35,461 nucleotides of DNA, from the IMG/VR virus record IMGVR_UViG_2778261527_000008, one strand, 5' to 3'. Numbering within the stretch: the first letter of the stretch is position 1; each line of letters opens with the position of its first letter. Positions 25,545 to 29,740 of the stretch are shown one piece after another. The position numbers and the translations under genes were made by a program. The notes under the pieces were generated by a model. That model saw nothing but the letters and a program-made list of their open reading frames with translations. It made no database searches and was not told the DNA's origin. The DNA is from a virus (taxonomy: Duplodnaviria > Heunggongvirae > Uroviricota > Caudoviricetes).

Positions 25545-25964
25545 ATGCTAAAAACTAGGCTTATCACCGATTACATCAATTCTTTAATAGGTCAGGAGTT
25601 CGTTCAGGGTGAGAATGATTGCAATCTCATTGCATGTAAGATCATCGATATTCTCGCTGGTACTGACCTATATAATTCTCTTTATAAAAAATATTCAACT
25701 AAAGAAGAAGGCTTGAAAATCTGCAAAGAATTAAGCGGGTATTCAAATATCCTTCAACCAATTAAGAAACATTTCAAATTAGTCACTGATGATTTACAGG
25801 ACGGCGACTTACTGGTCACAGCCCACAAATTAGGAAACCGTAATTATTATTCCGTAGTTCCTCATTATTCCGGTTATGGCCTCGTTGAAGAAGATGGTAT
25901 CTGGATGACCATTCCTGTTTCAGACATTGACTATGAACAAGTTTATAGATTCGGGGGTGAATAA
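25545..25964 (+). CDS. tail tip protein with NlpC/P60-like Cys/His motif (gpK C-terminal-like)
   Basis: ATG at 25545 with GGAGG RBS; GENDCNLIA and downstream His; 139 aa. Confidence 0.35.
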   Translation: MLKTRLITDYINSLIGQEFVQGENDCNLIACKIIDILAGTDLYNSLYKKYSTKEEGLKICKELSGYSNILQPIKKHFKLVTDDLQDGDLLVTAHKLGNRNYYSVVPHYSGYGLVEEDGIWMTIPVSDIDYEQVYRFGGE

Positions 25965-28900
25965 TGGGATTTGAAATATTAGTAGGCGCGGTTATTGCTG
26001 GTGCGTCTGCTGGGATGGCTGCTGCTGCAACATTTTCTGTTATGACCGCAGTCGCTATCGGTATGGCTGCTGGTGCAATGACCTTGATCGCTTCCACTGT
26101 AGGCGCACCAAAAACACCGAAAGTACAAAGCCCAGATAATGCGGTGACACTAGGAACATCAAACGATCCGAAGACAGTATTACCCGTTCTTTTCGGTACT
26201 ACCCGCACGGGTGCAATCTGCGTTTACAAGGCAATTTCTAAGCAAGAAAACAATAAGTTAGTGCAAATCTTCGCTATTGCCGAGGGTGAAATCGACCATT
26301 ACAAAGCACTCTTTATTGATAATAAAAATGTTCTTGTTGGTAAGAACATGACGATCCGTGATGGTATTCTCGATAAGGGCAACATTAAAGAAGAATATCG
26401 TAAAGTATTAGAAGTCGAGTTCCGCACGGGCAAGAATCCTAACACCGCTTTGTCGCTGGCAAAACGTCACTTAGGGTCAGACTGGAACGACAACTACAAA
26501 GGCAATGGTATTGCAACCATGTGTATTGTGTTACGTCGTGATGACAAATCTCTTGCTGCTGGTGTTGATATTCTCCAGCCTAATAGCCAGGTGGCAGTAG
26601 ACGTTTGCGGGTTAAAGATTCGTAACCTTGAAACCAATGCTATTGAGGCTAGCACTAACGGCGTGGACCAGATTTTCCATTATCTGACAAATACAAAATA
26701 TGGTCTTAGTGTACCAATTGAAAACATCAACGTTGATTCATTCCTGAAAGTACGTAAACAAGTACGCCAGATGGACCTACATTCAAACGGTGCATGTGAT
26801 CCGAACGCCAGCTTTAAAGAGAACTTGACCAGTCTTATGCAGACTTTCGGCGGGGTGATGTTCGAATCCTTCGGAAGAATTACCCTGAAACTGGATGCTC
26901 CTGATATTGTTAAGCATACCTTCAATGAAGACAATATTATGATGGGTAAGGTATCACTGAAAACAGGTGGCACTAACGGTTATTTCAATACCATTAACGC
27001 GATGTATCAAGAACCATCAATCGACTATTCAGAACAAATGCTACGTTATCCGGCTGATGCTGAAAACGATGCTACTATTCGTCAAGATGGTCGAATTATC
27101 GCTAAAGATATTGAATATCGTTTTGTTAAGTCTAAAGCCCAGATTGATAAACTTGCGAGTATTGAACGAAATAAATCTCGTATCACTCAGGTTATCAGCT
27201 TTATGACTACTGACGCATTCACTGCCGAAGTTTGGGATGTTATCAGCGTAACCTATGATGAATTGAAACTGAATAATTCCTTATGGCGTATTACTGCAAT
27301 TGATCGCTCGATTGATTCTGGTATTGCTGGGATGATGACTATCACCGCTACAGAATATAATTCTCAGGTTTATACTGACCTGAACTATGCGGCTAACCCA
27401 GATAACCGACCAAGTGGTTTACCGGATTCAATGACAGTACAGAAGCCTACTAATTTCAGAATTAAGGCAACTGGCGAGACGATTTACGGTAAAAACGTTA
27501 CTTTGACATGGGATGCGCCGGAAGATTTTAACCGTTATGGTTTTCAGATTGATTACCGTGTAAGCGGATCACCTAACTGGATTAAGCTGGGACAGACTTC
27601 ACAGCAAATTTTCAGTGTCAATGCACTGGCAAAAGATCGTTCTTATGATTACCGAGTTTGTGCTTTCGGTATCATCGCTCGATCCGATTGGGTAGAACTG
27701 GTTAACCAGAATCCGACTGTTACCTATGAATTGCCGACTCCGGTTATTCGAATCAAAAATCAGGGTAGCACGCCTGGTACTTTCGAAGGCAATGATCTGA
27801 TTATCGAATGGGAAAATCAGCAACAATTAGATGTTGAGATCAACGGTGAAACTAACAAGTTTAGTGACCTGTTTGAAGCATACATTATCAAGGTGACTAA
27901 CAAGGCTGGTAAGTCTATTCAGTACCGTACCCGCGATCCTGAATCATGGACTTATACGCTTGATATGAACCAGTTTAACGGCCTTTCGCGTCAACTGACG
28001 GTAGAAGTATCAGCTAAGGGCTATAACAACTCAGAGAGCGCCCCAGCGCGTTTAGTGGCTATCAACCCACAACATAAGCCAATGAAAGGTTTTAGTGCGC
28101 GTGGTGGCTTTAATACTGCGTTTGTTAGCTGGGCGGATGACGTAGAACATGACTATGCAGGGTCAATCATCCAGTATGCAACCGACAACACTTTCTCAGA
28201 TGCAAGGGCAGTAAGTACGAATAGTGTTAGCCATACTTCCTTTGATATTGCTGACGGTGATTATTATATCCGTGGTGCTCACTACGATATTTTCGGTATG
28301 GATGATGCTGTTTGGTCTGAACCGTATTTCATGCAAATGAAATCTACCATTAGCTGGGACGATCAGGACAAAGAAGCACTGGAAGATCTGATCGGTTTAC
28401 AAGATCGCTTAGATGAAACTATCGCGGATGCTATTAAGCAAGCTGGCGCTAATGCCGATGCTAAAATTGATGCAATGCATAAGCAAATCACTACCGAGAC
28501 GGGTAAAACTGTTCAAGCCTCAGCCGATACCTTAAAGAGTCTGATTGCTTCTGGTGATAAGGCAAGTTCAACTAAGATTGATCAGGTTAAAGCTGAACTG
28601 AAAGGCGATATCACCAAAGAAGTTAGCGCCTCCGCTACAACCCTGAAACAAGCTATTGCTACCAGTGAAGCAGCAAGCGCAAGTAAGATTGACCAAGTTC
28701 GGGTAGAAATGGATGGCAAGATTGCTGGTGTGAATCAGGAAGCGGACGTTAAGATCGATGCTTTGAAAGGAACCATTAACAGCAAATACAATCTAGCGGT
28801 TAATGCAGATGGTCGCGTGGCTGGTATTCACATGAGCGCAACTAACGATCCGGCACAACCGACTAAAATCATCTTTACGGCTGATAAAATTGCTGTAGCT

Positions 28901-29740
28901 CCGCAGAACGGGACCGATGTTTGCCCGTTTGGTATCGAAGGTAACAAGGTTTATCTCGATAATGCGATGATTCGTAATGCTGCAATTGGCACAGCCCAGA
29001 TTAATGATGCGGCAATTACTACCGCTAAGATCGGCAATGCTGCAATTAACAGCGCGAAGATTCAGGACGGGGCGATCACCAATGCGAAGATCGTAAACGG
29101 TGCTATTGATAACGCCAAAATTGGTAACTATATCCAGTCTTCCAACTGGAACGGATCAACCGGATGGCATATCAACAAGAACGGGTCCGCTACGTTCATG
29201 AACGCTACCGTTAAAGGTAATATCACGGCTGATTCTGGTACTCTGAACAACGTCACGATTAACTCTAGCTGTGTTATTAAGGGTATGCTTGAAGCTACTC
29301 AGGTTAAGGGTGATTTCGTTAAGGTGATTGGTCGTAAGTTCCCACACCGTGATGTTAACGTTGATAATGGTTATGGCGGCTATCCGCAAGGTACAGTAAC
29401 CGTTCGCGTTGAAGATGATCACAAGTTCGATCGTCAAATCGTTATTCCGGCGATTAGTTTTGGTGGATTGCGAGCGCGTGAAGGGTCGAACAATAATACC
29501 TATTACGACACCTGTCGCCTGATTGTTCGTAAGAATGGGTCAGAGTTGTATAATAGGGCGTATGGCGGTAATACTGGTCTTTACTCAGGTGTTATTGATA
29601 TGCCAGCGGGTAAAGGTGCTGTGACCTTGACCTTTGAAGTGCAATCAAGCGCAATCAACAACTGGACGCCTAGCACATGGATCAGTGATTTAACTGTAAT
29701 GGTAACTAAAAAAGCCACTACGGGTATTACTGTTTCTTAA
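25964..29740 (+). CDS. central tail fiber / host specificity protein, lambda J-like
   Basis: 1258 aa; C-terminal ~160 aa aligns by eye with lambda J receptor-binding region ([12 protein letters not shown].., [15 protein letters not shown].., [9 protein letters not shown]..GITV); unusual 50-aa hydrophobic N-terminal extension. Confidence 0.8.
   Translation: [1258 protein letters not shown]

Follow-up and report, generated by a model that had tools for sequence, protein, structure and literature searches.

The window, the whole 35,461 nt stretch of viral DNA analyzed here, carries an open reading frame (ORF) at 25964-29740 (+) encoding a 1258 aa protein. Its boundaries are exactly those given in a preliminary description of this DNA, the two peptides quoted there are found verbatim in the translation, and the PGAP annotation of E. 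coli MEI003 calls an identical CDS. The ORF and the elements preceding it are arranged as follows:

21801-24233 (+), tape measure protein, 810 aa, rich in coiled coils, at the position preceding the tip genes
24249-24845 (+), distal tail protein (PHROG 1302, E=3e-16; match to the pb9 B-domain weak)
24842-25498 (+), separate hub protein with an HDI/attachment domain at the position of lambda gpL (PF09931, 26.4 bits; PHROG 2048, E=3e-27)
25545-25964 (+), DUF6950 protein at the position of lambda gpK (PF22262, E=3e-12; PGAP annotation)
25953-25960 (+), Shine-Dalgarno-like motif GGGGGTGA, 4 nt before the ATG

The tape measure, distal tail, HDI hub and gpK-position genes all precede 25964-29740, as found for hub genes. 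The same phage also encodes a 1176 aa side fibre and a gp38-like adhesin upstream. The stop codon of the preceding gene overlaps the start of the ORF as TAATG (25964), which suggests translational coupling. Because of this overlap and GGGGGTGA 4 nt upstream, the start codon at 25964 is credible.

Judged from sequence and model comparisons, the protein consists, from N to C terminus, of a gpI-like segment, a plug, a pb3-like hub, three fibronectin-III-like (FN3) domains, a shaft, a DUF1983 core, a pentad tract, a neck and an Ig-like domain, and is presumably trimeric by homology:

25964-26104 (+), residues 1-47, uncharged Gly/Ala-rich hydrophobic segment (hydropathy, gpI and megatron profile matches, conservation in homologues)
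26105-26293 (+), residues 48-110, equivalent of the gpI plug and beta-strand (APKTPKVQ...), followed by the N-terminal strand of the hub (BLASTP with gpI; pb3 profile match)
26294-27433 (+), residues 111-490, baseplate-hub domains of HDII, HDIII and HDIV type (pb3 profile; AF2 fold matches)
27434-28348 (+), residues 491-795, three FN3-like beta-sandwich domains (AF2 strand blocks; FN3/titin matches)
28349-28783 (+), residues 796-940, alpha-helical shaft rich in Ala, Ser and Lys (AF2 helix; fold match to 8xcj_F)
28784-28942 (+), residues 941-993, central-straight-fibre core, Phage_Tail_Tip, formerly DUF1983 (PF09327; alignment with lambda J 872-931)
28943-29122 (+), residues 994-1053, pentad tract (periodicity; gap against lambda J)
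29123-29332 (+), residues 1054-1123, neck joining the fibre to the receptor-binding domain
29333-29740 (+), residues 1124-1258 and stop codon, Ig-like receptor-binding domain of the lambda J type (PF12421; PDB 9wca, 8xcj)

For residues ~72-795, which comprise the hub and the FN3 domains, T5 pb3 was the best match in both profile and fold, a family profile aligning with pb3 262-943 (E=5.5e-61). Foldseek searches with the AF2 model retrieved the DT57C and T5 hub proteins at E~7e-35 and lambda J at 1.5e-23, and HDII-HDIV domains are followed by FN3 domains (AF2 strand blocks at 496-582, 595-700 and 711-792), the arrangement of this hub class. Pfam Phage-tail_3 (PF13550) scored 19.9 bits against a cut-off of 23, and homologues at 88% identity carry it as a precomputed domain. 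Profile and model comparisons thus make T5 pb3, not lambda J, the closer relative of the hub, a relationship missed in the preliminary description. In contrast to this protein, T5 pb3 contains HDI, which is encoded here by the separate ORF at 24842-25498, and it stops after FN3, the T5 fibre (pb4) and receptor binder (pb5) being separate proteins.

The N-terminus had been singled out as unusually hydrophobic for a J protein. Throughout the whole protein, all 19-residue Kyte-Doolittle windows above 1.6 start within residues 1-30, and residues 1-47 include 14 Ala, 7 Gly and a single charged residue (E4). The hydrophobicity is therefore real, but it is no oddity, as the segment is the C-terminal half of gpI fused in frame to the hub. 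BLASTP aligned residues 48-107 with lambda gpI 156-223 (35% identity, E=1e-6). A profile built from 27 N-termini of the family matched lambda gpI 107-212 (E=3.2e-8), although over the hydrophobic part this match is built on low-complexity Gly/Ala sequence. It also matched T5 pb3 262-313 (E=2.9e-8), the F2 pyocin tail assembly protein 105-190 (E=1.9e-3) and the RcGTA megatron (6tba_8A) 6-139, the last match being weak (E=2.7e-4) yet spanning the whole N-terminus. Pfam searches with residues 1-140 alone returned no family at E<=1, Lambda_tail_I included, and AF2 left residues 1-56 without structure (pLDDT <50).

Lambda gpI and residues 1-107 share the order of features, namely hydrophobic helices (H1/H2 in gpI), plug and a beta-strand motif (APK.TP.IQ...VLPVLYG.MRVG in gpI, with VLPVLYG..RVG in common); in T5 the plug, with its hairpin tip at residue 233, directly precedes the shared IPVVYG motif. 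Lambda gpI differs in being a separate 223 aa protein with an additional N-terminal domain (~1-100). This globular domain is absent from the ORF, which begins at the hydrophobic segment, and because the alignments are confined to gpI 107-223, only the C-terminal half of gpI is represented. When lambda gpI was compared with the 317 six-frame ORFs of the window, no ORF matched other than the hub-fibre ORF; the window is thus without a separate gene I, and the ORF is an I-J fusion. The hub proteins of RcGTA (g15) and roseophage R4C, called megatrons, likewise open with an iris/penetration domain, residues 1-46 or 1-45, that is hydrophobic, closes the tail channel and has been proposed to form an outer-membrane pore (PMC7296036, PMC10276861). 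Megatrons differ in possessing adhesin-like, peripheral and fibre-binding domains and in lacking a lambda-type central fibre and Ig receptor-binding domain. By these alignments, residues 1-47 correspond to helices H1/H2 of lambda gpI and to the megatron iris/penetration domain. Of the 120 close homologues listed, almost all retain the segment; two are N-terminally truncated records. At E<=0.001 the family comprises 1630 representatives, and among the best 150 of them a hydrophobic N-terminus is present in 113. I-J fusion is the norm in this large family rather than an exception.

Two other explanations of the hydrophobic N-terminus were considered. The start might be miscalled, so that translation begins at one of the internal Met codons (residues 18, 27, 34 and 39) and the hydrophobic stretch is never translated. 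This is very improbable given the Shine-Dalgarno-like motif and stop-start overlap at 25964; moreover, protein-level conservation of the segment extends to relatives of as little as ~25% identity, and the gpI profile match takes in the hydrophobic part. Alternatively, a long, uncharged and hydrophobic segment to which AF2 assigns no structure could be a secretion signal or inner-membrane anchor acting in the producing cell instead of a virion element. We give this hardly any credence, since the N-terminus (MGFE...) has no basic n-region, its 47 residues exceed the length of a signal peptide, and it is conserved throughout a family of virion hubs. In addition, its counterparts in lambda gpI (107-212) and the RcGTA megatron (6-139) both lie in the tail-tip lumen of solved structures.

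Downstream of the hub, the fibre resembles that of lambda gpJ (P03749), in which shaft, DUF1983 core, neck and Ig-like receptor-binding domain follow in the same order. Residues 949-1258 aligned with J 872-1131 at 31% identity, gap included, and at 41% over the last ~190 residues. Lambda gpJ differs in having neither the pentad tract nor the gpI-like N-terminus, in having two FN3 domains instead of three and in its hub, which is more distant from the present one than is that of T5 pb3. The best fold match of the fibre model was the lambda fibre in its open state (8xcj_F, E=5.5e-21), followed by 9wca_F, 8xck_F and 9wcb_F at ~1e-15. PF09327 matched residues 931-1028, upstream of the receptor-binding domain (71.9 bits against a cut-off of 22, E=6e-20). 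In the shaft, AF2 model 1 placed a helix at 799-829 and model 2 a helix at 800-830 followed by long antiparallel strands at 840-960; matches to a motif of the SxSxxMxxLxS type are enriched there, and two shaft alleles occur among the homologues. F-type pyocin fibres (F2: 25vf; F7: PMC12874032) similarly proceed from a shaft to a beta-prism and then to a short pentad-type stretch, and the coiled-coil to prism switch motif is common to both, but they have few pentads, another distal end and side fibres on the shaft. The models make residues 796-940 a candidate coiled-coil to beta-prism switch segment.

Between core and neck, the repeat announced in the preliminary description at ~28960-29130 is real and correctly placed. 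It is not an octapeptide in six consecutive units, however, as its period is 5/10: residue autocorrelation over 996-1060 was 0.49 at lag 10, 0.33 at lag 5 and 0.02 at lag 8. The tract consists of 11 exact Ile pentads, or 12 by a looser rule (xxAxI, residues 994-1053), which pair up as five decapeptides of the form xNAAIxxAKI. Ile recurs with period 5 at 11 consecutive positions (1003...1053), whereas the longest run in 2000 shuffles was 7, far beyond chance. No DNA-level tandem repeat was found in the tract. An octapeptide triple beta-helix of the T4 gp5 type was rejected because there is no eight-residue period. Lambda J, which is without pentads, showed a 61-residue gap at this point, and in relatives the runs vary from ~5 to 35 pentads. 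The tail end of the tract matches PF09327 positions 85-130, and an alignment pairs its last pentads with residues 1145-1167 of the F2 pyocin fibre. By homology, the most likely fold of the tract is a beta-helix in which three chains intertwine, measuring roughly 5-6 nm and serving as a rigid spacer.

The C-terminal residues 1124-1258 matched Pfam Ig_GpJ_C (PF12421; E=7.6e-34, 117.1 bits against a cut-off of 26.2), and residues 1067-1258 aligned with lambda J 946-1131. The final ~160 residues had been likened to lambda J by eye, with alignment to J ~980-1132 suggested as a check; the similarity is significant and longer than claimed, and the description of the gene as a tail-tip/central-fibre protein at the J position with a lambda-J-type receptor-binding domain is supported. 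The domain is 49% identical to that of phage 434, whose receptor is OmpC. It is 42% identical to that of lambda J, which binds LamB (PMC11101478), and 51% to the natural part of A8 gpJ, which like 1A2 uses OmpC (PMC11338833). The A8 gpJ chimera (9wca/9wcb; Brodel et al. 2024) is the closest solved receptor-binding domain (E=6.6e-54), and 9wcb_F, from the A8-OmpC complex, was a fold match at 50% identity. At ~51%, A8 is no nearer to the present domain than to lambda J (46.5%), so that its OmpC specificity is not transferable. Because A8 and lambda use different porins, the receptor is not readable from the sequence, as the preliminary description had also held. At the family level, homology points most likely to a trimeric outer-membrane protein, with a porin favoured.

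Different readings of these two distal modules can be weighed against each other. The A(i-2)/I(i) pattern of the pentads agrees with the pentapeptide-repeat consensus, and weak PDB matches to Np275/276 and designed beta1 repeat proteins were obtained (E=0.02-0.25), as if the tract of each chain folded by itself into a monomeric quadrilateral beta-helix of the Rfr type. This is unlikely: Pfam Pentapeptide models did not match the tract, PF09327 being the only match at E<=10, and the AF2 monomer has no intrachain secondary structure, strands included, across it (pLDDT nevertheless 71-85). The fibre flanking the tract is a threefold prism, and the homologous stretch of the F7 pyocin fibre, paralogous to F2, has been described as a "short intertwined beta-helix" at 1119-1167 (PMC12874032). 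These points argue for the intertwined trimer. As to the receptor, no characterized receptor-binding domain is above about 60% identical to this one, and the phage has its side fibre and gp38-like adhesin, which could perform primary recognition while the Ig-like domain binds a non-porin outer-membrane protein or LPS. The compared Ig_GpJ_C relatives of known receptor (lambda, A8, 1A2 and 434) bind a trimeric porin in every case, which makes such an arrangement rather improbable, but one to be kept in mind as other J-type tips aim at TolC or NupG (bioRxiv 10.64898/2026.04.02.716166).

The E. coli prophage copies of the gene are mosaic, with exchange points at module borders. Compared with the P0001 group, the hub is 96% identical but the tract 70%, the neck 64% and the receptor-binding domain 80%; conversely, the C-terminus is 98-100% identical to that of proteins whose hub is at 88%. 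The neck includes the equivalent of the lambda position-964 junction, used by others for building chimeras (PMC11338833). These identities indicate that the pentad tract and neck most likely sit at the border of receptor-binding module swaps.

Taken together, we consider with good confidence that a temperate siphophage of E. coli makes its tail-tip hub and central fibre as a single chain from this gene, with the modules given above and the following mechanism. In the virion, the N-terminal segments would occupy the tip lumen and shut the tube below the tape measure. The receptor-binding domain would engage an outer-membrane trimer, in all likelihood a porin, and a signal would pass up the fibre, where the shaft may change its fold from helix to beta-prism. 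Release of the FN3 strings and opening of the hub would follow, and the hydrophobic N-termini would enter the outer membrane before the tape measure protein and the DNA. Demonstrated here are the identity of the modules, the joining of the C-terminal half of gpI to the hub, the 5/10 period and the mosaic exchange among prophage copies; the steps of the mechanism draw on homology to lambda, T5, RcGTA and F-pyocin structures. The roles of gpI and the iris/penetration domain have been published, channel closure and outer-membrane insertion by this element being proposals even for RcGTA and lambda (PMC11101478, PMC10721106, PMC7296036, PMC10276861). More tentatively, and with considerable doubt on our part, one E. 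coli polypeptide may unite a proposed outer-membrane penetration element (gpI/iris domain), a fold-switching shaft and a lambda-type porin-binding domain, with the tract and neck as a natural splice point for receptor domains between hub lineages.

The protein is a mosaic of known modules and no new kind of machine, and it reveals no new mechanism. [quoted passage not shown] In natural E. coli prophages the modules are cleanly bordered at the shaft, the pentad tract/neck and the receptor-binding domain, which could help in designing chimeric delivery particles of the lambda type. If the three elements are indeed united in one chain, outer-membrane insertion of hydrophobic termini and the helix-to-prism switch as the driver of tail opening could both be tested directly in this prophage, whose genetics would be simple.

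The ORF at 25964-29740 (plus strand) encodes 1258 aa and contains both peptides quoted in the preliminary description. Its ATG overlaps the upstream stop codon (TAATG) and is preceded by GGGGGTGA, and PGAP labels the same CDS 'phage tail tip domain-containing protein'. The genes upstream encode a tape measure, a distal tail protein, an HDI hub protein and a DUF6950 protein. Searches with phmmer for lambda gpK, gpL and gpM gave no match to any ORF of the window; Pfam, PHROGs and genomic position were used to assign these roles instead. The DUF6950 protein (about 25545-25964, plus strand) occupies the gpK position and had no phmmer match to lambda gpK; by eye, its 'NDC...H' pattern recalls cysteine peptidases of the NlpC/P60 type. 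A 130-aa antisense ORF (25816-26208, minus strand) runs across the beginning of this gene and most likely arises as an artefact from the Gly/Ala-rich codons of the sense strand. The protein itself is a well-formed modular tail-tip protein, every part of which has solved relatives, and all earlier observations on it stand except the period assigned to its repeats.

The hydrophobic N-terminus was borne out, as strongly hydrophobic 19-residue windows are confined to the first ~48 residues, which are Gly/Ala rich and carry a single charge. Pfam found no family in residues 1-140 alone; the link to lambda gpI came from pairwise BLASTP and a family profile. By BLASTP, residues 48-107 are 35% identical to the last 68 residues of gpI (E=1e-6), and the two proteins have the elements APK-TP-[KR][VI]Q and VLPVL[FY]G..R.G in common. 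A profile built from 27 diverse N-termini of the family was run against all PDB sequences and matched gpI 107-212 including the hydrophobic helices (E=3.2e-8), T5 pb3 262-313 (E=2.9e-8), the RcGTA megatron 6-139 (E=2.7e-4) and the F2 pyocin tail assembly protein (E=1.9e-3). From residue ~101, lambda gpI consists of a pair of hydrophobic helices, a plug (159-175) and strands that pass through the gpJ hub; as a trimer, gpI closes the tube beneath the tape measure C-terminus, and entry into the outer membrane has been proposed for its helices (PMC11101478, PMC10721106, PMC12617516). RcGTA and roseophage R4C have a megatron hub whose first ~46 residues form an 'iris/penetration' domain, for which the same role is proposed (PMC7296036, PMC10276861), and in T5 the membrane-anchoring plug hairpin, with its tip at residue 233, lies directly before the shared IPVVYG motif (PMC10038345). 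No further gpI-like ORF is present in the window. Taken together, these matches and parallels and the lack of a second gpI-like ORF indicate that the N-terminal 'extension' is the gpI C-terminal half joined to the hub and lacks the gpI N-terminal domain. This fused state is common in a large family, which has 1630 cluster representatives at E<=0.001; a hydrophobic N-terminus is present in 113 of the 150 best. AF2 left residues 1-56 unstructured, which would fit a segment that becomes ordered only in the assembled tip or in a membrane. The 'unusual' N-terminus is thus a module already known, here in fused form.

The hub that follows is closest to that of T5. A family profile matched T5 pb3 262-943 in one continuous stretch (E=5.5e-61), with lambda J scoring behind it (E=1.6e-39). 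In the AF2 model spanning residues 1-830 (pLDDT 81.9), the hub domains are accompanied by three FN3-like domains and by the beginning of a helix, and Foldseek ranked the DT57C and T5 hub proteins at the top for the hub model (E~7e-35), followed by JBD30, T1, lambda and Chi. For residues 791-1258, the AF2 model (pLDDT 76.4) places a helix at 800-830 and then long antiparallel strands at 840-960; the structure it resembles most is the lambda fibre in its open state bound to LamB (8xcj_F, E=5.5e-21). Residues 827-912 are enriched for the published SxSxxMxxLxS pattern, and this shaft may plausibly undergo a fold switch. Pfam assigned the domains Phage_Tail_Tip and Ig_GpJ_C to the fibre. The C-terminus is lambda-J-like, as had been proposed by eye: residues 949-1258 align with lambda J 872-1131, and the lambda side of the alignment contains a 61-residue gap that corresponds exactly to the repeat tract.

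The tract had been described as consecutive octapeptides. A repeat tract is indeed present, but autocorrelation is 0.49 at lag 10, 0.47 at lag 20 and 0.33 at lag 5, and only 0.02 at lag 8; the octapeptide reading is therefore ruled out, and the unit is the decapeptide xNAAIxxAKI, which pairs two xxAxI pentads. Isoleucine recurs at 1003, 1008 and so on to 1053 in 11 exact pentads, and a looser rule allowing any of I, L, V, M or F adds NKVYL, giving 12 pentads over 994-1053. Tandem Repeats Finder and a direct-repeat search detected no DNA-level repeat in the tract; recent slippage or duplication was rejected as its origin because the periodicity exists at the protein level only. Twelve pentads are found in 118 of 120 close homologues and eight in one, and distant relatives with the tract have runs of about 5 to 35. 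The last pentads and the following YIQSSNW..GW.I.K.G fall within the Pfam DUF1983 model and also align with the solved fibres of F2 pyocin, J-like gp24, phage T1 and SU10. We infer that the tract would form an intertwined trimeric beta-helix spacer, roughly 5-6 nm long by our own calculation rather than by tool output. A monomeric pentapeptide-repeat fold is a minor alternative to this trimeric spacer; Pfam rules out membership of the tract in the pentapeptide-repeat family.

The nearest solved relative of the receptor-binding domain is 'A8 gpJ' (E=6.6e-54). In the lambda chimera A8, the tip is that of a natural E. coli prophage and uses OmpC (PMC11338833); the OmpC complex of A8 is PDB 9wcb. 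The receptor-binding region is 51% identical to A8 and 42% to lambda, while A8 and lambda are 46.5% identical to each other; the Ig domain alone is 49% identical to that of phage 434 and 57-60% identical to those of uncharacterised Stx and lambdoid prophage J proteins. Naming the receptor from these relatives was given up, because identities of 41-51% to the characterised proteins (lambda, 434, A8) and 57-60% to the uncharacterised ones are too distant for specificity to be transferred, in agreement with the earlier view that the receptor cannot be read from the sequence. A recent receptor-prediction preprint gives no rule for this domain type. Our best guess for the receptor class is a trimeric porin, with a slight lean to OmpC.

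Identity across homologues shifts from module to module. Homologues with a 96% identical hub are 70% identical in the tract, 64% in the neck and 80% in the receptor-binding domain, and those with a 98-100% identical C-terminus are 88% identical in the hub. The shaft occurs as two alleles differing by ~32-42 residues, and the Salmonella copies have an unrelated tip (about 20% identity). E. coli assemblies encode >100 near-identical proteins, and relatives at 81-88% identity occur in E. coli, Salmonella and Providencia. Megablast against 50,697 phage records found no close DNA match to the gene among isolated phages, which yielded distant protein matches only. The best of these, at 40% identity, is from Escherichia phage DCP80 (PQ671644.1), whose protein shares the N-terminus and tract but not the receptor-binding domain. 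The 141-kb DCP80 record is classified as Straboviridae/Gaprivervirus, yet carries a siphophage-type module of tape measure, hub and central fibre, 40% identical to the gene, and could have been misclassified or assembled as a chimera.

The window contains a temperate siphophage with a gpA-type terminase, a lambda-family portal, a protease-capsid fusion, tail genes, an M15 endolysin and a large serine recombinase. The fusion is a single 668-aa ORF (12517-14523, plus strand) with a Peptidase_S78 prohead serine protease (40-162) and an HK97-type major capsid domain (410-664). Of 5426 complete E. coli genomes, 61 have about 25 kb of the window on their chromosome, at 93-97% identity. The recombinase gene (32281-33975, minus strand) lies at the prophage end, and the copy in E. 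coli MEI003 (L005) adjoins a truncated hicB beside ydcR (L005 27932-28051); this arrangement suggests that the prophage integrates into the hicAB locus. A 102-aa ORF before the tape measure (21110-21418, plus strand) matches the tail assembly chaperone family PHROG 344, and the 'cytochrome' annotation of its MEI003 counterpart (L005 13579-13887) looks like a misannotation. Directly 3′ of the fibre gene, in the place of the lom-/cor-type genes of lambdoid phages, a 92-aa ORF (29845-30123, plus strand) has a hydrophobic N-terminus, a coiled-coil tail and weak family matches. The region around the tail tube gene is organized as follows.

Side-fibre, tail tube and adhesin genes in the window
16332-19862, plus strand, upstream of the tail tube gene: side-fibre protein of 1176 aa that has a trimerisation domain of the T4 Gp34 type and, at its C-terminus, an S74 intramolecular chaperone
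19919-20392, plus strand, tail tube
20561-21067, plus strand, T-even Gp38-like adhesin, downstream of the tail tube gene

Given the side-fibre protein and the Gp38-like adhesin, the phage has myovirus-type side-fibre parts besides its central fibre, and they occupy an unusual position within the tail genes.
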